This document shows positions 86 to 10,581 of a stretch of 10,833 bases of DNA, in pieces. The DNA lies in NCBI GenBank assembly GCA_020349685.1, contig CP070698.1:1021934-1032766 (forward strand), read 5' to 3'. The translations under genes and the position numbers were made by a program. Numbering within the stretch: position 1 is the first letter of the stretch; each line of letters begins with the position of its first letter. The notes under the pieces are model-generated. The model was given only the letters and a program-made list of their open reading frames with translations. It had not been told where the DNA came from and did no database searches. This DNA comes from a bacterium. Lineage in GTDB: Bacteria > BMS3Abin14.

Positions 86-688
86 TTAGGCCTCTTCGGC
101 ATCCCACTTCGGATGGTTCTTCTTGGCCCATTCCCTGGTTACCGTACCCTTGGTCATGGCGCGCCACGTGCCCGGCACGCCGATGGTGCCCAGATAGGCA
201 TGGATGGCAATGAAGCCCATGAAAAGGATGAATCCGAGGTTGTGGAGAAAATACATCCACTGCTGAAGCCCCCTGCCGAGCTGGAAGGGGAACCACATGG
301 CGAGCCCCGTCAGGGCCATGAGGACCGCCAGGATGATGGCGACCCAACCTGCCAGCTTCTGTCCGGCGTTGAACTTGCCTGCCGGCGGGGCTTTGGCGCT
401 CGGATCCATGTACTCCTTGATCACGGCTCCTAGGGAATCTTCTCCTGGAGCAGAGATATCCTTGAACCACTGCAGGAAAATGATCACGGTTGCCACTATG
501 AACACGATCCCTGCCCAGTGGTGGATGACCCTGGAGTTGTCCACCCCTCCGAACAGTCCGGTCAGGCCGAAGAAGGACTTGGCGTAAAGACCCAGCCCCG
601 TGATGACGAGCACGATGAAGGCGAGCATGTTGATCCAGTGGAACATCCGTTCACCCTGGGTGGTCCTTTTTACGAGATGATGTGACAT
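86..688 (-). CDS. fdnI: Formate dehydrogenase-N gamma subunit (di-heme cytochrome b556 membrane anchor), 200 aa
   Basis: Four hydrophobic helices with His heme ligands (ERMFHW, RVIHHWAG, YFLHN, IAIHAY). Family motifs GKFNAGQK and GTWRAMTKGTVTREWAKKNHPKW are present. The ATG overlaps the fdnH stop (TGATG) and has an SD AAGGAGGTGA upstream. Confidence 0.95.
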   Translation of the reverse strand: MSHHLVKRTTQGERMFHWINMLAFIVLVITGLGLYAKSFFGLTGLFGGVDNSRVIHHWAGIVFIVATVIIFLQWFKDISAPGEDSLGAVIKEYMDPSAKAPPAGKFNAGQKLAGWVAIILAVLMALTGLAMWFPFQLGRGLQQWMYFLHNLGFILFMGFIAIHAYLGTIGVPGTWRAMTKGTVTREWAKKNHPKWDAEEA

Positions 689-1512
689 CAGTACTCACCT
701 CCTTCCCCGGGTGAGGGTGAGGGTGACGGCGCAGCCGCCCCGCCCTCTTCATCGGGCTCTTTGGGACCGATGGTTATATAGTGGGCGATAAGACCCACAA
801 CCCCGGCCACGAAGGCGATAACGCCCACGGGCTTCATGATGGTGCGCCACAGGAAGGTGGGGGTCGGGATGGCGGGTTTGGCCGGCAGGCCGTACTGTGT
901 GGCGCTGTCCTCGAGCAGGAACACGACGTTCGTGCGCAGGGGTCCGCCGTCGTAGACCGCAAGGCCCTTCTCCTTGGCAGCGGCCGTGATGCCGCCCAAT
1001 TTTCCCTTATCGGTGAAATAGAGGGCATCCGTGGGGCAGGTTTTGGTGCAGGCGGGCTCCATGCCCATACCCTGGCGATCGAAGCAGAGAGTGCACTTGA
1101 ACGCCTTGTCCTCGCCGAACCCCTCTGCGTTGGACCGGTCATAGCGGGGAACGTCGAAGGGGCATCCGAACACGCAGTACTTGCAGCCGGTGCACAGTTG
1201 CTGGTTGATCACCACGGAGCCGCTGGCCTCGCGGGTGATGGCCCCCGGAACGGGACATGCTTTCATGCAGCCCGCATCGGCGCAGTGCATGCACCTGTGC
1301 TGACCGAAGAACCATCTGATCTCCCCATCCCTGTCCACCTCGTTGAACCGGATCTTGGTGTAGGTGTTGTAGGAGAGATCCGGGGGGTTCTCGTAGCTGC
1401 CCTTGCACTCGGTCGGAACCGCCGAAAGACTGTTCCACTGCTTGCAGGCTGTCTGGCAGCCGCGGCAGGCAGTGCATCTGGTAGTATCGATAACGATCAT
1501 TTTTTCAGCCAC
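688..1512 (-). CDS. fdnH: Formate dehydrogenase-N beta (4x[4Fe-4S]) subunit with C-terminal TM anchor, 274 aa
   Basis: Four Cys clusters: CTACRGCQTAC, CMHCADAGCMKACP, CTGCKYCVFGCP and CTLC...PACTKTCP. Also GSYENPPDLS and a C-terminal TM helix (VGVIAFVAGVVGLIAHYI). GTG start preceded by GAAAGGGGGTGA. Located between fdnG and fdnI. Confidence 0.95.
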   Translation of the reverse strand: MAEKMIVIDTTRCTACRGCQTACKQWNSLSAVPTECKGSYENPPDLSYNTYTKIRFNEVDRDGEIRWFFGQHRCMHCADAGCMKACPVPGAITREASGSVVINQQLCTGCKYCVFGCPFDVPRYDRSNAEGFGEDKAFKCTLCFDRQGMGMEPACTKTCPTDALYFTDKGKLGGITAAAKEKGLAVYDGGPLRTNVVFLLEDSATQYGLPAKPAIPTPTFLWRTIMKPVGVIAFVAGVVGLIAHYITIGPKEPDEEGGAAAPSPSPSPGEGGEY

Positions 1513-1529: not shown

Positions 1530-4500
1530 CTATTTCTTATCGACGTTGACCATGAAGGCCTTCGTCTCTGGGATCATGGTATTGGCGTCCCCGATGCTGG
1601 GTGTCAGAAGGTTGCTCGAATCGCCATAGGTCGGGTTGGTGTAAGCCTTCCCGTTGGCCATAACGTCGTTCTCCTTCGTCGTCGCCCAGCCGAACGCCCA
1701 GGGCAGTCCTACCTGGTGGACCGTGGCGCCGGCGACCTGGAACGGCTTGAACCGTTTGGTCACGATGGCGATGGCGTCCACCTTGTTGCGGACCGAGGAC
1801 ACGACGACCTTGTCGCCGTTCCGGATGCCCCTTTCATCAGCAAGCTCTACGCTTATCTCAACGAAGTTGGCCGGCATCATCTCGGCCTGCCACGGCAGCC
1901 ACCGGGTCAGAACACCTGTCTGCCAGTGCTCCGACACCCTGTAGGTGGTGGCGACGATGGGGTACCTGTCGTCACAGTTGAGGAACTGGTCCATCTTCCC
2001 CGTGAAGATCTTCGAAACGGGGTTGATCCTCTGGGGGTTCATGAGGTTGCGCTCGATGGGACACTCCAGAGGCTCATAGTGTTCGGGGAAGGGACCCTCG
2101 GAACGCCCTGGCCCGAAGATGTGGGAGACCCCGTGGGGCTTCATGATGTAGGCGAGCTTCGTAGCGTCGTTCCAGGTTCCGTCGGGCTTGCGCAGGGGAG
2201 GCCATCCTCCGTCCGGCACATCGCCGACCCACTTGGAGCCGTTCCAGTAGACGACCGGCTTGTGGGGAGCCCACGGTTTGCCGTATTCGTCCACCGAAGC
2301 CCTGTTGTAGATGATCCGCCGGTTGACCGGCCAGCACCAGGTCCAGCCGTTGTACAGACCGATGCCGGTGGGATCGGACTTGCCGCGGCGGGCCATGCTG
2401 TTGCCCGAATCGGTGTAGGACTGGCAGTACAGCCAGTTACCGGAGGAGGTGGACCCGTCGTCCTGAAGGAAGGCGAAGGAGGGGACGAGATCCCCTGCCT
2501 TGAAGTCCCTGGCGCCGACCTTCTTGTCCTCGAGGAAGTAGCCGTTGATCTCCTTGGCGATGAGGTGGGTGTCCATGTGACTGACCTTGCCATCCGGACC
2601 CTTGGGACCGTAATTCCAGTCGAGGTTCACAATGGGCTCGGGGAAAACCCCGTTCTGCTCGGAATACAGCTTCCGCACCCGCCACTGGAGTTCGTTGATG
2701 ATGTCCGCATCCGTGGGCGCGGGGGGCTTGACCGCCGCGTAGCGCCACTGTGCCCAGCGGCCCGAGTTGGTAATGGAGCCTTCCTTCTCGAAGGACATGG
2801 CGCAGGGGAGCAGGAACACCTCTGTCTTGACCTGGCTCGGATCGACGCCCGGGCCGCGCCAGAAGGATCCGGTTTCGTTGTCGAACAGGTTGACGTTCAC
2901 CATCCAGTCCAGCGTAGCCAGGGCCGCCCTGACCTTGCCCGCGTTGGAACCGGAGCAGGCCGGGTTCTGTCCCCAGGCGAAAAAGCCCGTGAACTTGCCG
3001 TTGAGCATCTCGTCAAAGAGCACGAGCCACGAAGCGTTCTGCCCTTCGTCGAGTTTCGGCAGCCATGAATACTGGGTTTCCAGGTCGGCGCTCTTGCCGA
3101 AGTGTGCCCGCAGAAGACTGGCGCTGTACTTGGGATAGTTGCTCCACCAGTTGGCCGAATAAGGCTCTTTGGTCTTGGGTGTCTTCGCATCGTTGTACTT
3201 CGCGAAGGTCGACAGTGACGCGCTGGGCGTTCCCAGGTATCCCGGAAGGATGTGGAACAGGAGGCAGTGGTCCGTGGATCCCTGCACGTTGGATTCGCCG
3301 CGCAGTGCGTTCACACCGCCGCCCGCCATCCCGATGTTGCCCAGCAGGAGCTGGATAATGGCCATGGTCCTGATGTTCTGGGTGCCGACAGTGTGCTGGG
3401 TCCACCCCATAGCGTACATGATCGTGCCGGTGCGGTTGGGTTTGCCCGTGGAAGCGTAGGTCTTGTAGACCTCGAGGAGCTTGTCCTTGGGCGTCCCGCA
3501 GATGGCCGAAACCTTGTCCAGGGTGTACCTTGAGAAGTGCTTTTTCAGGAGCTGCAGGACGCACATGGGGTCCTTCATCTCCGGGTCCTTCTTGACAACG
3601 CCGTTGGCATCGGTCTGGAAGGACCAGGTGCTCTTGTCATAGCTCCTCTTCTTCGGGTCGTAACCCGAGAACAAGCCGTCCAGCTCACCCGGCATCTTGA
3701 AGTCCTTGTTAACGATAAACGGACCGTTGGTGTACAGCCGGACGTAATCCTTGTGGTACAGCTCGTTGTCGAGGATGTACTTGATCATTCCGCCCAACCA
3801 GGCGATGTCGGTGCCGGACCTCATGGGAGCGTAAATGTCGGCCTTGGAGGAAGTTCTCGTGAAACGCGGGTCCAGGCTCAGAAGCTTGGCCCCATTCTCC
3901 CTGGCCTTCATGACCCATCGGAAACTGATGGGGTGATTCTCGGCAGCGTTGCTGCCAGAGACGATGATGACATCAGAGTTCCTGATGTCGATCCAGTGGT
4001 TGGTCATCGCCCCTCTTCCAAACGACTCTGCCAGAGCCGCTACGGTTGCGCTGTGTCATATGCGCGCCTGATGTTCGATATACACCAGGCCGAGGGCGCG
4101 AAGCCACTTCTGGAGGATGTAGCATTCCTCGTTGTCGAGGGCCGCGCTGCCAACATGGGCGATGGCGTCGTTCCGGTTGACCACCTGGCCATTGTCGTTG
4201 ACCTTGGTGAAACCGGCATCGCGGCTCTTCTTGATCTTCTTGGCTATCTCGTTGTAGACCCAATCCCAGGACTTCTCCTGCCACTCGCTGCTGCGGGGGG
4301 CACGGTAGAGGGGTTTGGTGATGCGGTACTCGCTCTCCGAGACCTGTCTTAAAGCCTGCGCCTTTGAGCAAAGGGAGCCCTCGTTGATCGGGTGATCAGG
4401 GTCTCCCTCCATGTTCACGACCCTTCCGCCGTGGGCACTGACAATGAGGCCGCAGCCCACGGCGCAGTAGGGACAGATGGTCGTTGACTCCTTGGCATAC

Positions 4501-4625
4501 TTGATGGCGACGTTGCCCTCGCGGGCTCCCGCCATCGCTGTGCCTTTGAGTCCCAGGCCACCTAGCGCGGCGCCAGACACGGTCGCACCGGAGATCTTGA
4601 TAAAGTCTCTCCTGGTTACGTTCAT
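1530..4625 (-). CDS. fdnG: Selenocysteine-containing formate dehydrogenase-N alpha subunit (Mo/W-bis-PGD), ~1031 aa, Tat-exported; Sec at codon 4056-4058
   Basis: ORFs 4056..4637 and 1530..4007 are in the same frame. Reading through the TGA gives EHQARI-U-HSATVAALAESFGRGAMTNHW, the canonical FdnG active-site motif. Also present are the Tat motif TRRDFIK, the [4Fe-4S] motif CPYCAVGCG...GSLCSK, the catalytic Arg in NALRGESNVQG, and C-terminal PFPEHYEP and IPETKAFMVNV. ATG 4625 has GGAG 6 nt upstream; GTG 4637 is an alternative start. Confidence 0.96.
4018..4045 (-). promoter_or_regulatory. Bacterial SECIS element (Sec insertion sequence)
   Basis: Starts at nt +11 after the UGA: CCG-(U bulge)-AGCGGCUCU-GGC-AGAGUCGUU-UGG. 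This is a 12-bp stem (including G-U pairs) with a bulged U and a G-containing apical loop at +24..+26. Confidence 0.85.
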
Positions 4626-4748
4626 CCCTGTCTCCACCTTCCTTTCTTACGGGTTAAAGTCCAGATAGCTTACGACAATTGTGCGGATAAAAGGTCAAGT
4701 CACCTCCTTCCCGAACGGTTTCCTCCTTCCATACCGGTTCTTTTTCTG

Positions 4749-4790
4749 AAAAATGATAAAGGAAGCCATGCATACGCAATGGCTTCCTTT
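4749..4790 (-). terminator. Leader (attenuator) terminator, the putative riboswitch expression platform upstream of fdnG
   Basis: Perfect 12-bp inverted repeat AAAGGAAGCCAT (4758-4769)/ATGGCTTCCTTT (4779-4790). On the minus strand the GC-rich stem is followed by UUUAUCAUUUUU. It lies ~125 nt upstream of the fdnG start. Confidence 0.75.
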
Positions 4791-4874
4791 GCAAAAAGGG
4801 CAGGCACCGGAATTGCTCCCGGCACCCTATCGTCCCGCCCATCCTCAGGGGACGTCACGGGATCGGAAGACACT
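4778..4874 (-). ncRNA. Moco-family riboswitch candidate lacking P3 (tungsten-cofactor/Wco-type variant)
   Basis: The minus-strand RNA folds by eye as follows. P1 is AGUG-U-CUUCC/GGAAG-C-CAUU. P2 is UCCCGU...CGUCC-CCUGA-GGAUG...GCGGGA. P4 is GGGUGCCGGGA-GCAA-UUCCGGUGCCU with a GNRA loop. P5 is UGC-CCUUUUU-GCA, followed by AAGG. The 5' CUUCCGA and 3' GCCUGCCC..UUGCAAAGGAAG parallel the Moco motif hallmarks CUCCGA and GCCUCCC..UUGGAAAGG. It sits upstream of a Mo/W enzyme. Confidence 0.75.
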
Positions 4875-5002
4875 CAATAGACTTTGGAATCAGGATGTGC
4901 AGCGGGCTTTGCACCCGTAAAAAAAACCCGTGTGCTGAAAGATACCGCGTTCTTAATACTGTATGCGATAAACCAGGTAAATGCTCCCCCCTGTTGAACT
5001 TG

Positions 5003-5088: not shown

Positions 5089-6012
5089 TTAAGCGTCCTC
5101 GGCCTCCTCTTCGGTGATCGTCCCTATCCAGACACCGCATATATTGGGCGCGCCCCTTGAGTATCCTTCCTCCTCGATGGCTCGGTCAAAGCCGGGCGTT
5201 TTGAGATCCTCCACCTCAGGGTGTGCGCTGCCGAGATCATCCCCCTCGATCCTCCATCCCTTGATGTAGGACTGGCACTGGCTGCAGACACTCGCTGACA
5301 AATTGCGGTAATCGGGATCCTCTGAATAAAGATATCCCGATTCCCTGGGGTTTTCGTGACCGCAGTAAGGGCAGGCGAGCCTTCGGTAGCGCCAGTGCGC
5401 TTCGCACCTGTGGCAGATGAGATGCCTTTTGCCCCCCTCACCCATCATGTAGGCCACGGCGGGCTCGCCACCGCATACGGGACAATGCCCTTTCTCCCAG
5501 CTGGAGGTGTCAACATCGGCGCACCGTACGGCCGCTTCCAGGAATGGGCGCTTCAGGGCATTGAATAGAACGAACATGACAACCTCAGGGTTAACTCCCT
5601 CGATGGACACCAGGTTCTTTCTGAGGGGCTCCTCCCCCTCCGTCAGATAAATGCGGGCAAGTCCCCTCAGCCTGGCCGTATCATCCTCCAGACCCGCCAT
5701 GTCACTGAGCAGGGCCGCGCTGTCCTCCGAATGGCGGCCCAGAACATGGATCACCTGCCCGACCATGACAGCCAATTCATCCTCATCCGGCACCATTTCT
5801 TCAGGGTCGATGAGGGTAAACCCCTCGGAAAGCCTCATCTGGGCTTCCTCCTCGGTCAGGGCCCTCCTGTTCTCTCCTCCCACAGAGCTCTTTTCGTTCA
5901 ATTCGAAAAGATCCCGGTAAAGACCCAGGACATCGTCCATACCCTCGACATCCAGCTTACCGGCAAGGAGGGCCTGACTGGCAGTTTCGCGTCTGGTGCT
6001 TTTTTCCGTCAT
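5089..6012 (-). CDS. fdhE: Formate dehydrogenase maturation protein FdhE, ~307 aa
   Basis: C-terminal Cys pairs WEKGHCPVCGG, RHLICHRCEAHW, RLACPYCG and CSQCQSYIK are typical of FdhE, and the gene is adjacent to fdn genes. The start was moved from 6045 to ATG 6012 because GGAGGT lies 6 nt upstream of it. Confidence 0.9.
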   Translation of the reverse strand: MTEKSTRRETASQALLAGKLDVEGMDDVLGLYRDLFELNEKSSVGGENRRALTEEEAQMRLSEGFTLIDPEEMVPDEDELAVMVGQVIHVLGRHSEDSAALLSDMAGLEDDTARLRGLARIYLTEGEEPLRKNLVSIEGVNPEVVMFVLFNALKRPFLEAAVRCADVDTSSWEKGHCPVCGGEPAVAYMMGEGGKRHLICHRCEAHWRYRRLACPYCGHENPRESGYLYSEDPDYRNLSASVCSQCQSYIKGWRIEGDDLGSAHPEVEDLKTPGFDRAIEEEGYSRGAPNICGVWIGTITEEEAEDA

Positions 6013-6052
6013 GGGGATACCTCCGGGGAAACAAATCATTATCATGACATCA

Positions 6053-6134
6053 GAATGAGGAATAGGGAAGGAGGGAGGAGGAATAATACGTTTCTCTTCG
6101 TCCTTCGTCCTTCCTCCTTCTTCCTTCGTCCTTC
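6053..6134. repeat. Inverted pair of heptamer tandem arrays (imperfect hairpin)
   Basis: Left arm GAATGAG GAATAGG GAAGGAG GGAGGAG GAATAAT (6053-6087). Right arm TCTCTTC GTCCTTC GTCCTTC CTCCTTC TTCCTTC GTCCTTC (6093-6134). CTCCTTC is the reverse complement of GAAGGAG. Confidence 0.8.
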
Positions 6135-6141
6135 AAATTAT

Positions 6142-6159
6142 GTCCAGGTCCAGGTCCAC
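6142..6159. repeat. Short hexamer tandem repeat
   Basis: GTCCAG GTCCAG GTCCAC, immediately after the stop codon of the 936-aa gene. Confidence 0.55.
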
Positions 6160-6162
6160 GAA

Positions 6163-8973
6163 CTATACCTTGGCTTTTTCGATCCTGCCCATAAAAACCT
6201 TCAACTCCATGCCTCCCGTGGAAAAATCAAAGACCGGGGGGGTCAGGGCGTTGGCGCCCGGCTCATCATCCCCGTAAAGGGTCATGGAAGCAACGTGATA
6301 GAGCGTCCCATCCCTTTCAAAGGTGCCGATCCTTCCCGTAACGAGGGCCGTGGCCTGGACACCTGCTTCATGATAGGGAGAAAGGACATTGATATTATCC
6401 CCGCTCCTGATTCCCAGGGAGAGGGCAAGTTTTTCCCCGATCTCCACCATTCGGCCTGTCCCCAGTTCCCTTGCCGCGGCCGGCCAGGCCGTAACGCCCC
6501 CGGTCCCCATGATATGGCCCGTCCTGTGCAGCATGATAATAACGGGATACTGGGAGAGGACCTCCTCCGGCCTTCTGGACAGATAGCCCCACTTGTCTGC
6601 ACCCTCCTTTCGAAGCTGCAGACCGGGATTGGATTGCCCTCCGGTCAGAAAATCGGGAAGGGGGCTGTGAAAGGGCTCGTGGTGCTCCGGAAAAGGGCTT
6701 CCTTTGTCTACAAGCCTCCAGAATTTGATGGGAAGCTGGGGCCTCAGCGGCAGGACCTCTGCCGCGGAATACCTCTTTTGGCTCTGCCCTTTCCACCGAA
6801 GATAAGCCCCTTTCTCATTTCCCGGCTCTCTTGCCCAGGAAAAGGGATCGGCGACACCCCAGGGCCAGAACCAGCCCCACCTGTCGTAGAGGCCCACTGC
6901 ATCGGGATCGACGGGATCTCTTCGTCCGGCATTCCATGTTTCGCTTTCCATCCAGCCCCGATAGAGCTGGTTTCCGCACCGATCATCCTTCTGCCAGGAT
7001 CTGTCTGCGGGTAATGGTGTCTCCTGTCCTCCGCTCCATCGCCACCCGTTGATCTCTGCGGCCACATTTTCCGGTGTCATGGCCAATGGCCAGTTCAGGT
7101 CGAGCACTGGTCCCTCGAGAACACCGCCCTCTGCTTCGTACTTTGCGCGGATGGAGTTGCCCAGACTGGAGAGGAATTCGAGGAGTCGCGGCACCTCCCT
7201 GTCGTCATTCCCGACAGGGCTGACAGACCTTACCCTCCTGCCGTGATCTGTCATGGAACCGTTTTTCAGCGCCGGTGGTTCTGTCGGGATAAACAGGACC
7301 TCCGTTTTTATGGTTGATTCTCGGCCCGCAGGCCGCTTCCAGAAGCTGCAAAGGCGATTGGGAATGGAATCCATGACGACGAGCAGGTCCAATCTGTCAA
7401 GGACCTTGTGTATCGAGGAGCTGTCGGAAAGGCTGCTCAGGGGGTCGGTTCCCATGGCAATCAGAGCTCGTATCTGTTCATCACCGACACCCTGGATGAT
7501 GGTGCTGACAGACGGACTTTCGTCCTCCTCAAGGTGGGGGATATAATCCAGCGCCTCCTTTATCCTTGTCGAAGGATACCAGGCCTGCACCAGGGCATGG
7601 AACGCTTCCGGATTTTTCACGCCCTCGTTGTCTTTTCGGTACCGCGGTATCGGGATGTAACCCGGGAGGTAGGGGGCCATGAGCCCCATGTCACAGACGC
7701 CCTGCGCGTTGCCGGCTGCTGCGGGCAGAACAACGCCTCCGCCCTTCTTGTCGAGGTTTCCGAGAAGGGCCTGCGCCACCGCGGCCATCCTGACGGCCTC
7801 CGCGCCTGAAGGGCTGACCAACGCTCCGGAACCGAGAATGAATGTCGCCGAAAAATCAGGGCTGGCGGTCCTCGCCAGAACGGTACATGCCCGGCGCAGA
7901 AGATCGATATCCACCCCTGAAATACCTGTGATCTTCTCGAGGTCATACCGCTCGAAATGCTTCTTCATTCTCTGGAAGATCGAGTAGGGTTCCGAAAGAG
8001 TTTCATCGACGATCTCCCTGTTCTTGTATTTCCCCGAAGCGTGTTTCTCGTAAGCTCCCATGATCTCGCTCAACACGATGAAGGCCGCGTCCGAGTTGTC
8101 AACCAGCTCGGATTTTCTGATATCAGCATACTTGAGAACCCAGTTTACGAAGGCACCGAGGACGGCGTTGTCTGTTCCAGGACGCAGCTGCAGCCACAAG
8201 TCGTTCTTCTTTATGGTTTCCGATTTCCTCGGGTCGAGAACGATGACCGTGCCGCTTCGTTCGCGTACCCTGTCGAGGAAACGGCAGAGGGCTGGCGCCG
8301 TCTGACCCGGGTTGCATCCAACAAGGACGACAACGTCGCTATGGCCGACCTGAGTTGCAGGATGGGTCCCGCCCGGGATCCCCAGAGTGTCCAAAAGTCC
8401 TGAAACAGCCATACCGTGGCTGGATCGAACGGTTGTGTCCATGCCCAGAACGCCCAGCGCCCGGAACAGTTTGGAGGTTGTGTAAGCTTCTTCGTTGGTA
8501 AGATTTCCACCGGTTATGACGCCGAGGCTGTCGAAACGGTTGAAGATCTTTTCACCGCCGCCTGAAAAAATACCGAGATCCCTGTTCCTCAGGTCCTTAA
8601 TACGCCTGGCGACGAGGTGAACAGCTTTATCCCAGTCGATCTCTTCAAAGCTTTCAGCGCCGGGAGGACGGTACAGCGGCCTGGAGACCTCCGCGAGATC
8701 CAGTGACCCCGTGAGGGATGCCCCGCGAGGACAGAGCGACCCCCGGGCCACCGGGCAGTCTGGATCACCCTCGACGAGCCAATGACCGTGCTCCCGGGAC
8801 CGGTAGATCAGACCGCAGCCGAGACTGCAGAGGGGACAGCGCCCAGGGATCTCCCGGCCTGAGAGAAGGGCGCTTCGTTTAGACGCGCTCAGGGCGGGAA
8901 GCCTTGCGCCAGCCACCAGGCAGGCAAGGATCGTCCCGCCGGTTTTGAGGAAGGTGCGGCGTTTGAGTTTCAT
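6163..8973 (-). CDS. Divergent FdnG-like molybdopterin-oxidoreductase-family protein, 936 aa, with Tat signal and [4Fe-4S] motif but non-canonical active site (Ser for Sec/Cys, Ala for Arg)
   Basis: Collinear with FdnG along its length: KRRTFLK Tat motif, CPLCSLGCG...EGDPDCPVARGSLCPRG, RPLYRPP, NEEAY..KLFRALG, LRPGTDNAVLG, LLGNLDKKGGGV, PFPEHHEP, and GMELKVFMGRIEK. The frame is uninterrupted. Confidence 0.9.
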   Translation of the reverse strand: MKLKRRTFLKTGGTILACLVAGARLPALSASKRSALLSGREIPGRCPLCSLGCGLIYRSREHGHWLVEGDPDCPVARGSLCPRGASLTGSLDLAEVSRPLYRPPGAESFEEIDWDKAVHLVARRIKDLRNRDLGIFSGGGEKIFNRFDSLGVITGGNLTNEEAYTTSKLFRALGVLGMDTTVRSSHGMAVSGLLDTLGIPGGTHPATQVGHSDVVVLVGCNPGQTAPALCRFLDRVRERSGTVIVLDPRKSETIKKNDLWLQLRPGTDNAVLGAFVNWVLKYADIRKSELVDNSDAAFIVLSEIMGAYEKHASGKYKNREIVDETLSEPYSIFQRMKKHFERYDLEKITGISGVDIDLLRRACTVLARTASPDFSATFILGSGALVSPSGAEAVRMAAVAQALLGNLDKKGGGVVLPAAAGNAQGVCDMGLMAPYLPGYIPIPRYRKDNEGVKNPEAFHALVQAWYPSTRIKEALDYIPHLEEDESPSVSTIIQGVGDEQIRALIAMGTDPLSSLSDSSSIHKVLDRLDLLVVMDSIPNRLCSFWKRPAGRESTIKTEVLFIPTEPPALKNGSMTDHGRRVRSVSPVGNDDREVPRLLEFLSSLGNSIRAKYEAEGGVLEGPVLDLNWPLAMTPENVAAEINGWRWSGGQETPLPADRSWQKDDRCGNQLYRGWMESETWNAGRRDPVDPDAVGLYDRWGWFWPWGVADPFSWAREPGNEKGAYLRWKGQSQKRYSAAEVLPLRPQLPIKFWRLVDKGSPFPEHHEPFHSPLPDFLTGGQSNPGLQLRKEGADKWGYLSRRPEEVLSQYPVIIMLHRTGHIMGTGGVTAWPAAARELGTGRMVEIGEKLALSLGIRSGDNINVLSPYHEAGVQATALVTGRIGTFERDGTLYHVASMTLYGDDEPGANALTPPVFDFSTGGMELKVFMGRIEKAKV

Positions 8974-8981
8974 TAAGTTCC

Positions 8982-9009
8982 GTGACTCGTAATTGGTGAT
9001 TTGTGATTG
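8982..9009. repeat. Degenerate heptamer tandem repeat in the 5' UTR of the FdnG-like gene
   Basis: GTGACTC GTAATTG GTGATTT GTGATTG, consensus GTGATTN x4. Confidence 0.6.
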
Positions 9010-9041
9010 GTTGGCAGGTATCCCACGCCTTCGAAAAACTT

Positions 9042-9070
9042 ATTATTACTGCCCTCTGCATGGGTGTCAA
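9042..9070 (-). promoter_or_regulatory. Near-consensus sigma70 promoter for the FdnG-like gene (and probably fdhE)
   Basis: TTGACA (9070-9065)-N17-AATAAT (9047-9042), ~70 nt upstream of ATG 8973. Confidence 0.7.
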
Positions 9071-9076
9071 TTTTAT

Positions 9077-9107
9077 CTGCAAAAAACCGGTACCGCGTTT
9101 TTTGCAG
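9077..9107. promoter_or_regulatory. Perfect 11-bp inverted repeat: transcription-factor site or terminator hairpin for the gntR pair
   Basis: CTGCAAAAAAC (9077-9087)-N9-GTTTTTTGCAG (9097-9107). It is 6 nt upstream of the -35 box and ~55 nt after the gntR stop. Confidence 0.55.
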
Positions 9108-9161
9108 TACCGGCCGATAATGTCAGAGAAATGTCCTGGAATCAATGTTTCCTGAAAGGGA

Positions 9162-9866
9162 TCAGTCCTCCTCTTCCTTCCTCCCCTTCTTCCTTTCCTG
9201 GGATCTGGTCAGATGGTCGACGAGGACGCGTCCACCGGTCATGACATTGGTCTTGACGCTCTTTTCCACAAGGCTCTGATCACCGCTCCTGAAAGCTTCT
9301 ATGATCTGAGAATGCTGGTGTATGGCGTTCTCAAACTGCCCCGGCAAAGTCAGGGAGATGATCCCGAAGCGGTTGAAGTGGTCGTTCAGGTTGGAGATCA
9401 TCTGGATCAGGCGTTTGTTGCCGCAAAGCCTGACAAATCCCTCGTGGAACCTCGTATGGACCCTGTAGAACGATTCCAGGTCGTTCTTGTCGATAAGCTC
9501 CTTGAGTTCATCGTTGATCTTCTCGAGCCTGGCGATATCCTTTCCCTTCATGTTCCTCGCGGCCAACCTCGCCGCCAGGCCTTCCAGCGTGCTTTTTATC
9601 TCGTAAAGGTTTATAGCCTCATCGGTGTCGATGTCCGTTACGACAGCCCCTTTGCGCGGGATGATCTGGATGAATCCTTCATTTTCCAATTTGCGGAAAG
9701 CTTCCCTCAAAGGGGTACGGCTTATCCCCATGGATTCCGCCAGCTCCCCTTCAGGGATCTTCTCTCCTGGCTTGAACTTGCCCTTGATAATGGCTGTTTT
9801 TATGGATTCGGCGATATCTTCGGAAAGGAGTTTGGGCTCGTCGATCCTGATCTTGAAACTGCTCAT
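9162..9866 (-). CDS. GntR-family transcriptional regulator (wHTH + FCD domain), 234 aa
   Basis: wHTH motif IIKGKFKPGEKIPEGELAESMGISRTPLREAFRKLENEGFIQIIPRKGAVV. FCD features LYEIKSTLEGLAARLAA, RFHEGFVRLCGNKRL and HQHSQIIEAF. Confidence 0.95.
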   Translation of the reverse strand: MSSFKIRIDEPKLLSEDIAESIKTAIIKGKFKPGEKIPEGELAESMGISRTPLREAFRKLENEGFIQIIPRKGAVVTDIDTDEAINLYEIKSTLEGLAARLAARNMKGKDIARLEKINDELKELIDKNDLESFYRVHTRFHEGFVRLCGNKRLIQMISNLNDHFNRFGIISLTLPGQFENAIHQHSQIIEAFRSGDQSLVEKSVKTNVMTGGRVLVDHLTRSQERKKGRKEEED

Positions 9867-9906: not shown

Positions 9907-10581
9907 TTACAGGGCCGTTTGCTTCTTTACCTCCTGCTCAACCCTTACAGCCAACTCTTCACCGCTGAGCAGGGCGTGTTCCAGGACCACGGCCTCGGCA
10001 AGGCGCCCATCCTTTCTCGCCAGAGCCCTGATAATGGTCCTGTGCTGCCTGACGGAATCCATGAGCCTTCCCGGCACAGATAGCGCCTGGAGGCGGAACC
10101 TCATGAACCTCTGCACCATGTGCTCACGGAATTCCAGGAGCTTCTCATTACCACAATACGATATAAAAGTATTGTGAAACTCGTCGTTCTTCCAGAAAAA
10201 TGACTCCACATCGCCCTTTTCCGCCAGGACGGCCAGCTGTTCATTGATCTTCCTGAGCTTTTCGATACCCTTTTCGGTGATCTTTTCAGCCGCGATGCGC
10301 GCGGCGTAACCCTCAAGCAGACTTTTCAGTTCGTAAAAATCGTCGATCTCCTTCCTCGTGATCTTCGATACGACGGCTCCTCTCCTCGGAATGACCGTCA
10401 GGAACCCTTCACTCTCGAGCTGCCTGAAGGCTTCACGTATCGGGGTTCGACTGATCCCGAGCTTCTCTGCAAGCTCCGGCTCGGTGAGTTTCTGGCCCGG
10501 ATTCAGCTCACCTTTGATGATGGAATCCCTCAGGGAAGAAACGATCTGTTCGCGGAGTGTCTGATGTTTCTTTAATCTCAT
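9907..10581 (-). CDS. GntR-family transcriptional regulator (wHTH + FCD domain), 224 aa
   Basis: wHTH motif IIKGELNPGQKLTEPELAEKLGISRTPIREAFRQLESEGFLTVIPRRGAVV. FCD features NDEFHNTFISYCGNEKL, RQHRTIIRAL and LEH. Confidence 0.95.
   Translation of the reverse strand: MRLKKHQTLREQIVSSLRDSIIKGELNPGQKLTEPELAEKLGISRTPIREAFRQLESEGFLTVIPRRGAVVSKITRKEIDDFYELKSLLEGYAARIAAEKITEKGIEKLRKINEQLAVLAEKGDVESFFWKNDEFHNTFISYCGNEKLLEFREHMVQRFMRFRLQALSVPGRLMDSVRQHRTIIRALARKDGRLAEAVVLEHALLSGEELAVRVEQEVKKQTAL

Follow-up and report, generated by a model that had tools for sequence, protein, structure and literature searches.

A conserved FdnG paralog lacking the formate dehydrogenase catalytic residues, encoded beside fdhE and fdnGHI

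Why would a bacterium that encodes a canonical selenocysteine (Sec)-containing formate dehydrogenase (FDH) also keep a second, apparently exported version of its large subunit from which the catalytic residues have disappeared? The question is raised by a stretch of 10,833 nucleotides (nt) of contig CP070698.1 (assembly GCA_020349685.1, positions 1,021,934 to 1,032,766 of the forward strand), from a bacterium of the GTDB lineage BMS3Abin14. We refer to this whole stretch as the window and use its numbering for all coordinates; all genes of interest lie on its minus strand. The gene under study encodes a 936-residue FdnG-like paralog. We put the probability of our preferred reading only slightly above even (about 0.55): the protein would be an intact, selected homologue of the FDH-N alpha subunit, exported by the twin-arginine (Tat) route and bearing the FS0 cluster, that does not oxidize formate and most likely serves as a dispensable, non-catalytic accessory large subunit tied to FdhE and FdnGHI. 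The features on which the argument first depends are:

6163..8973, minus strand: FdnG-like paralog, 936 amino acids, from translation, alignment and fold comparison
8419..8421, minus strand: Ser185 codon AGC, opposite Sec194 of FdnG
7720..7722, minus strand: Ala418 codon GCA, opposite the catalytic Arg446 of FdnG
1530..4637, minus strand: canonical FdnG, with Sec194 (TGA at 4056-4058), His195 and Arg446

Catalytic residues and fold of the paralog

The open reading frame (ORF) of the paralog runs for 936 codons with zero internal stops, and its product aligns over the full length with the neighbouring FdnG at 26% identity (BLASTP, E 1e-101). This alignment pairs Ser185 with Sec194 and Ala418 with Arg446, and the identical register was obtained from MAFFT in three alignments and from phmmer against the PDB chains 1h0h_A and 8rcg_A. 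Ser185 is preceded by Arg-Ser and followed by His186 (CAC). The altered segments that accompany these exchanges were also confirmed; given as FdnG/paralog, they read YAMGWTQH/LGSGALVS, WGQNP/MGTDP, FEKEGSITNSGR/ALKNGSMTDHGR and TYRVSEHWQTG/LHRTGHIMGTG. In the phmmer alignment Met405 of the enzyme DvFdhA falls on Ser382, a position held by Ser or Ala across the family of paralogs described below, and Thr408/Gln409 fall on Leu385/Val386, the Thr-Gln-His motif being gone. At the N-terminus we found the Tat motif RRTFLK, with the arginine pair at residues 5-6, followed by the FS0 cysteines Cys46/49/53/81; PFPEHHEP is present as well. Thus the first-pass annotation was right to place Ser at the Sec position and Ala at that of the catalytic Arg (the codons are AGC and GCA, and all alignments concur), and right about an intact Tat signal, four FS0 cysteines, PFPEHxEP and a 936-codon frame.

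A misalignment masking a Cys or an Arg was considered and rejected, as four independent alignment methods give the same result; the cysteines closest to the site are C363 and C427, the latter opposite Thr455 of FdnG. Cys427 is not a novelty of the family, the NAQGxCDM motif being common to cytoplasmic FdhF-type proteins.

According to the cited passages, metal-dependent FDHs require a Sec/Cys ligand together with a second-sphere His and Arg (PMC13397495, PMC11134731), Met405 of DvFdhA is essential for activity (PMC11134731), and replacement of Sec by Ser abolishes the activity of FDH-H (PMC3160892). Because Sec/Cys, Arg, the Met405 equivalent and the Thr-Gln-His motif have all been lost from the paralog, and no conserved His remains, it is, judged by its residues, close to certain that the protein is not an FDH, as had been inferred at first pass from the loss of this residue set. 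The NCBIfam model of FDH-N alpha, TIGR01553 (cut-off 814.2 bits), rejects the paralog at 390.6 bits and scores the neighbouring FdnG at 1409.5 bits. An accompanying prediction, that automated annotation would mislabel the protein as FDH alpha, holds for relatives called "formate dehydrogenase major subunit" or "FDH-O major subunit precursor" but not for the NCBIfam model.

Structure prediction nonetheless demonstrates an FDH-N alpha fold, at the level of a model. With a 116-sequence alignment, AlphaFold2 (AF2) gave a mean predicted local distance difference test score (pLDDT) of 90.4 and a predicted template modelling score (pTM) of 0.92; with a 23-sequence alignment the pLDDT was 58.1, too poor for use. 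Foldseek searches of the PDB matched the alpha chains of the tungsten-containing FDH of Desulfovibrio vulgaris, FDH-N of Escherichia coli (1kqf_A) and the Desulfovibrio gigas enzyme (1h0h_A), with template modelling (TM) scores of 0.84-0.87 by query at 25-26% sequence identity, and an ESM Atlas model gave a TM score of 0.88 across 885 residues to FDH-N alpha clusters.

Distribution, selection and variation at the metal site

A word-indexed search recovered 32 other cluster representatives of the family at 49-76% identity, after which identity fell sharply to 29%. When 1.84 billion representatives were searched with a profile, one family cluster (1509 bits) and one fragment were returned, the next match scoring 522 bits. 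Among GTDB species genomes the protein is confined to the phylum of the window, small and uncultured, whose 16 species belong to nine genera of a single family; 14 of these species, the window's genome among them, carry it at full length. A GTDB-wide genome pattern scan yielded eight family loci (48-75% identity), all from uncultured metagenome-assembled genomes (MAGs), and beyond these nothing above 27% identity, mostly cytoplasmic FdhF-type proteins. Using tblastn with the window proteins, we found the same seven genes in the same order at 8 of 10 fetched loci, the exceptions being G009, with one GntR gene instead of two, and G004, which is rearranged.

The first alternative to be weighed is that the paralog is simply a duplicate of fdnG turning into a pseudogene. 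It does evolve faster than FdnG (identity to the window's copies across the fetched loci is 49-75% for the paralog, 41-65% for FdhE and 82-87% for FdnG), and of the 16 species one has lost it and another has a truncated copy. Yet the ratio of nonsynonymous to synonymous divergence (dN/dS; Nei-Gojobori) in three same-genus pairs, with dS between 0.18 and 0.63, was 0.141, 0.152 and 0.163, compared with 0.077-0.086 for FdnG and 0.20-0.26 for FdhE in same-genus pairs. Moreover, 193 of the 936 positions are invariant among 26 members reaching down to 49% identity, and the family stands on a long, fully supported stem in the phylogeny, not as a recent copy of the neighbouring FdnG. Codon comparisons thus demonstrate purifying selection on the paralog across the whole phylum. 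With dN/dS at about 0.15 and an unbroken frame in 14 of 16 species, spread over nine genera, we regard this as an intact, selected family; that it is not a pseudogene is close to certain, and decay is refuted in practice, with next to no probability left to it. The neutral, incipient-pseudogene outcome that the first-pass annotation had allowed for is accordingly excluded by ratios of 0.14-0.16.

The two losses are informative about the need for the gene. In G014 (contig G014:C93, 10.7 kb, no Ns) the order is GntR-GntR-FdhE-FdnG-FdnH-FdnI, a clean deletion of the paralog that leaves a gap of about 160 nt between the second GntR gene and fdhE; its congener G009 carries the paralog. In G004 (C1:296000-315900) the 5' half has been lost and what is left, a 466-residue 3' ORF, stands upstream of fdhE-fdnGHI, itself intact, the GntR genes being replaced by DUF4388, response-regulator and Hpt genes. 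Since fdhE-fdnGHI is retained in both cases, the paralog is dispensable for retention of the true FDH.

Selection has not, it seems, acted to hold a particular ligand. Among the 32 cluster representatives, a sample dominated by close relatives, residue 185 is Ser in 29, Gly in two and Cys in one. Read from the codons of the 14 species genomes, it is Ser in nine (AGC/AGT), Gly in four (GGN) and Cys in one (TGC), states that differ in the first base only, and the species with Gly include G001 and G002, the two other members of the window's genus. Residue 186 is His in 23 members, Arg in eight and Tyr in one; residue 418 is Ala in 13, Thr in seven, Val in seven and Ser in six, and Arg in 0 of 33. 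By comparison, Tat residues R5 and R6 are invariant in all 25 members with the N-terminus present, as are C46/49/53/81 wherever the N-terminus is present. Constraint has truly been lost at the positions closest to the metal, namely 186, 224/226, 385-387, 418/419 and 569. Because residue 185 switches between Ser, Gly and Cys and two flanking positions vary freely, it does not behave as an obligatory metal ligand would be expected to, and these alignments show no conserved replacement ligand elsewhere in the family. Of the two traits whose conservation the first-pass annotation had wanted checked, loss of the Arg is thus shared by the family, whereas the R-x-S-H signature is not: Ser185 varies, and the adjacent His, described there as kept, is kept in the window but not in the family.

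A different picture emerges from the rest of the pocket. We took as reference 27 canonical FDHs carrying R-x-C-H and the Arg, cytoplasmic types included. At 41 of the 62 columns conserved in at least 90% of them, the family retains the same residue, among these the motifs DPR, GxNP, PGTD and NxQGxxD together with R579, N908 and mostly K925. This is more of the nucleotide-binding motifs than in the 33 other degenerate FdnG-like proteins with which the family was compared. At other columns a different residue is invariant in the family, as in the changes from K92 to R83, H82 to C73, N213 to H204, N624 to D576, Q630 to R582 and T455 to C427, the last four of these at positions where canonical FDHs contact the cofactor. 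Mean conservation within the family is 0.79-0.85 in the four altered pocket segments and 0.71 over all positions, which places the segments in the top 13-30% of windows of the same length. The pocket segments had initially been described as eroded; they do differ from those of canonical FDHs, but given their conservation within the family they are in fact better described, from the alignment, as remodelled. The papers searched gave no list of the FdnG/FdhA residues that touch the pterin cofactor, and the case made here for the pocket is one of conservation statistics. One of the exchanges has an experimental counterpart. Throughout the family an Arg (R83) takes the place of the conserved Lys adjacent to FS0, and this matches K44R of E. 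coli FDH-H, which in the cited passages was the sole tested Lys44 substitution still active, at 7.1% of wild type, with cluster occupancy down by only 4.5% (PMC12176258).

Might the paralog then be a working enzyme after all? It would be a molybdenum- or tungsten-bis-pyranopterin guanine dinucleotide (Mo/W-bisPGD) enzyme with a substrate other than formate, having Ser or no obligatory protein ligand and handing electrons on, by way of FS0, either to FdnHI or to a soluble acceptor. Arsenite oxidase, which functions without a protein ligand to Mo, provides the precedent. Retention of Tat export and FS0, purifying selection, the preserved nucleotide-binding motifs DPR, GxNP, PGTD and NxQG with R579, N908 and mostly K925, the above-average conservation of the pocket segments with invariant polar replacements at cofactor-contact columns, and two carboxylate-type (FCD) regulators upstream all speak for such an enzyme. 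Against it, the would-be ligand drifts between Ser, Gly and Cys by single first-base codon changes; positions 186 and 418, on either side of the metal site, vary freely and those of Thr-Gln-His vary too; the gene has been lost or truncated in two species; and of the Pfam models, PF01568 falls below its cut-off (20.6 vs 26.8), although PF00384 (88.4, cut-off 24) and PF04879 (34.6, cut-off 22.7) score above theirs. On balance we consider a working enzyme unlikely. Of the two options offered at first pass, a pseudoenzyme or a Ser-ligated enzyme on an FDH scaffold, the evidence leans to the former, and the latter is not supported, with Ser in only nine of 14 species, Gly in four and Cys in one.

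Neighbouring genes, expression and proposed role

In the direction of transcription the locus comprises two GntR/FCD regulator genes, the paralog ORF, fdhE, a 450-nt spacer and fdnG, fdnH and fdnI. The remaining features of the window are:

9907..10581, minus strand: GntR/FCD regulator A, syntenic with the paralog
9162..9866, minus strand: GntR/FCD regulator B, syntenic with the paralog
9042..9070, minus strand: promoter-like site TTGACA-17-AATAAT (11/12), a consensus match only
5089..6045, minus strand: FdhE-like protein, 318 amino acids, four CxxC motifs
4768..4880, minus strand: molybdenum/tungsten cofactor (Moco/Wco) riboswitch aptamer RF01055, 48.1 bits (gathering score 36)
688..1512, minus strand: FdnH, four-cluster iron-sulfur subunit with a C-terminal membrane anchor
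86..688, minus strand: FdnI, cytochrome b561-type membrane subunit

Directly downstream of the paralog, after a 117-nt spacer, lies the sole copy of fdhE in the genome; an FdhD gene is found elsewhere in the same genome. The near-consensus, sigma-70-like promoter candidate is about 70 nt upstream of the paralog start. Between fdhE and fdnG is the Moco/Wco aptamer (E 3.4e-9), so that the paralog and fdhE stand upstream of the cofactor-sensing element that precedes fdnGHI. Seven relatives' loci, with L024, L026 and L027 not among them, were scanned for this aptamer at the gathering threshold; six have it in the same place, and in L018 it was not found.

Under our preferred reading, the paralog would be apparently co-transcribed with fdhE from its own promoter and, because both genes lie upstream of the riboswitch, would probably not be gated by it. 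The protein would fold in the cytoplasm and receive its FS0 cluster there, possibly with a pterin-type cofactor, the adjacent FdhE-like protein acting as helper. It would then be exported by Tat to the periplasm, where, by analogy with OmeA (see below), it may join FdnGHI/FdnHI as an accessory or alternative large subunit without catalytic function, forming a scaffold or part of an electron conduit.

The position of the gene could also be read in another way, namely that the paralog assists the true FdnG in its maturation or targeting, perhaps by holding cofactor or by engaging FdhE or the Tat machinery ahead of FdnG, and is not a stable subunit in the periplasm. It adjoins the genome's only fdhE, shares with it the place upstream of the Moco riboswitch, and evolves at an FdhE-like rate (49-75% against 41-65% identity, FdnG being at 82-87%). 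However, the invariant twin-arginine (25/25) implies export, whereas maturation factors remain cytoplasmic, and FdnGHI persists, highly conserved, in the two species without an intact paralog. We therefore hold a helper function to be quite improbable.

Several points weigh against the accessory-subunit reading itself. We infer the role and the partners of the protein from gene order alone, and an association with FdnH/FdnI or with FdhE is open to objection on that count. The paralog lacks dedicated beta and gamma subunit genes, whereas OmeA has its own membrane partner, and this weakens the analogy between them. Two of 16 species are without an intact copy, which speaks against its being a core structural component of the FDH complex. 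The above-average conservation of the pocket segments, with invariant polar residues at cofactor-contact positions, would also fit a working remodelled site. The putative promoter is a match to a consensus, and the weak hint that the paralog is transcribed comes from one RNA library that may contain DNA. In that metatranscriptome library, X20, 151-nt contigs with 0-1 mismatches match the paralog at 7369-7519 and 7979-8129, and a further match covers 9222-9511 in the GntR gene; no near-identical contigs were found in X20 over fdhE, the riboswitch and most of fdnGHI, and contig gaps prove nothing. DNA of the organism is present in sediment metagenomes from several studies.

Some further observations concern the surroundings of the paralog. 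In the spacer between paralog and fdhE (6046-6162, minus strand) a purine-rich run faces a pyrimidine-rich run, with which a long hairpin is possible, and RNA folding of this spacer was not significant (z = -1.6); one DNA run carries a 6-nt deletion at 6142. A terminator-like hairpin at 4827-4802 lies inside the riboswitch aptamer. The start of FdnG is ambiguous (4625-4637): the longest ORF begins with GTG at 4637, and an ATG follows four codons on, right before the twin-arginine motif. The two tandem GntR/FCD regulators are paralogs of each other (41-45% identical) and stand upstream of the paralog in most species. In L023 (G015) the fdhE match at 8539-9436 falls into two overlapping pieces in different frames, possibly a frameshift or an assembly error in the MAG. 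In comparisons with loci L018-L026, fdnGHI shows far less synonymous divergence than the genes next to it in the same genome pairs: between the window and L019, dS is 0.77 in FdnG, 2.8 in the paralog and 2.3-3.1 in the GntR genes. Strong codon bias or recombination of the fdnGHI block could explain this.

Comparison with known systems

The family is not alone among FdnG-like proteins in having a degenerate active site; many others occur in metagenomes. Among 93 aligned sequences 27 were canonical, and 33 outside the family were degenerate by a filter that required both the Cys of the ligand position and the Arg to be absent. Nearly all of these 33 start with a twin-arginine motif; three FS0 cysteines are present in 33/33 and the fourth in 32/33. 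Ten such proteins bear the source names "formate dehydrogenase major subunit", "formate dehydrogenase-N subunit alpha" or "molybdopterin-dependent oxidoreductase". When the 93 sequences (962 columns) are placed in a FastTree phylogeny, the family is monophyletic (support 1.0, on a very long stem of 1.18 substitutions per site) and falls within a 45-tip clade without canonical members (support 0.915), inside the periplasmic FDH-N radiation. Since the tree sequences were picked for resembling the family, and long-branch attraction may have played a part, we treat this putative clade as a lead only. Were the paralog a working Mo/W-pterin enzyme with a ligand-free metal and a substrate other than formate, perhaps a carboxylate sensed by the FCD regulators, sending electrons via FS0 to a shared FdnHI, the tolerance of Ser, Gly and Cys at residue 185 would be explained, and by extension the 45-tip group would represent an unrecognised periplasmic redox class rather than relics; we rate this larger claim as rather improbable.

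In one clade (P0134, P0141, P0144 and P0146) the ligand site reads R-D-S/T. The protein P0150 has R-S-S-H with the Arg kept. Scanning metagenome contigs with an alignment of the R-D-S-Y clade gained no gene context for the other degenerate families: 76 of 80 loci were canonical Sec/Cys FDHs (R/T-x-U/C-H with the Arg), and L127 gave a canonical main match and a second, weak one. The FdnG-like genes of L136, L140 and L152 retain the ligand Cys, but the His has become Val or Gln and the Arg has become Ala, a different form of partial degeneration.

These proteins matter in practice, as metabolic models that count every "formate dehydrogenase major subunit" as formate/CO2 chemistry would miscount both the family and the other degenerate FdnG-like proteins. 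The locus also offers a clean natural case for asking why a disabled molybdoenzyme subunit is retained, with the likely partners adjacent and a true FDH as internal control. Two species provide natural knock-outs, and the arrangement of paralog-fdhE, Moco riboswitch and fdnGHI is a testable regulatory one.

How, then, does the family compare with systems already described? It shares with FdnG/FdhA (PDB 1kqf, 1h0h, 6sdr) the predicted fold, the Tat signal, the FS0 cysteines, the domain order and many nucleotide-binding motifs. Unlike these, the paralog is 25-26% identical to them and about 100 residues shorter, it has lost the catalytic set, and its FS0 Lys has become Arg. Relative to FdnG it carries six deletions. 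The window's copy resembles the Ser-ligated dimethyl sulfoxide (DMSO), trimethylamine N-oxide (TMAO) and biotin-sulfoxide reductases in having Ser at the metal-ligand position, but it scores only 22 bits against a cut-off of 1017.55 for bisC_fam and 47.9 against 777.7 for dmsA_ynfE, and the Ser is replaced in 5 of 14 species. QrcB, ActB and the C-terminal domain of NuoG are cofactor-less members of the MopB superfamily that act without catalysis, as structural or electron-transfer parts; the NCBIfam model of QrcB is named "molybdopterin-binding-like subunit QrcB". The paralog scores far below the model cut-offs for QrcB (42.8 bits vs 440) and NuoG (37 vs 470.05), being far closer to FDH-N alpha.

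In the open-access literature searched we found no description of the window's family or of dead FdnG paralogs. The principle is already known, however, as cited passages describe Ser-for-Sec FDH-like subunits in Dehalococcoides (PMC3160892, PMC5736913), and the novelty claimed at first pass was overstated. In the organohalide-respiration complex of Dehalococcoides, the FDH-like large subunit OmeA is related to FdnG/FdoG, faces outward and carries Ser where FDHs have Sec/Cys; the passages cited report no FDH activity and a putative bis-MGD site (MGD standing for molybdopterin guanine dinucleotide), and propose the protein as a component without catalytic function in a complex for electron transfer (PMC3160892, PMC5736913, PMC10772276, PMC6258894). 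A locus labelled Dehalococcoides mccartyi (L067) and its genome, G041, gave no OmeA; the FDH homologues there are all of the cytoplasmic NAD type and have 2Fe-2S and NuoF-like proteins as neighbours, so the comparison is with published descriptions only. By these, the window's copy is like OmeA in carrying Ser for Sec/Cys and in being an FdnG-related exported subunit. In the window and the syntenic loci, where the neighbours are FdhE, FdnGHI and GntR, there is no OmeB-like partner, hydrogenase or reductive dehalogenase; OmeA, as far as those descriptions go, has its own NrfD-type membrane partner, OmeB, and borrows HupX as iron-sulfur subunit. The window's family has in addition lost the Arg, does not conserve the Ser and has no partner genes of its own. 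Finally, OmeA is described from an organism without a true FDH or quinones, whereas the window's family stands beside a true Sec-containing FdnGHI and FdhE.

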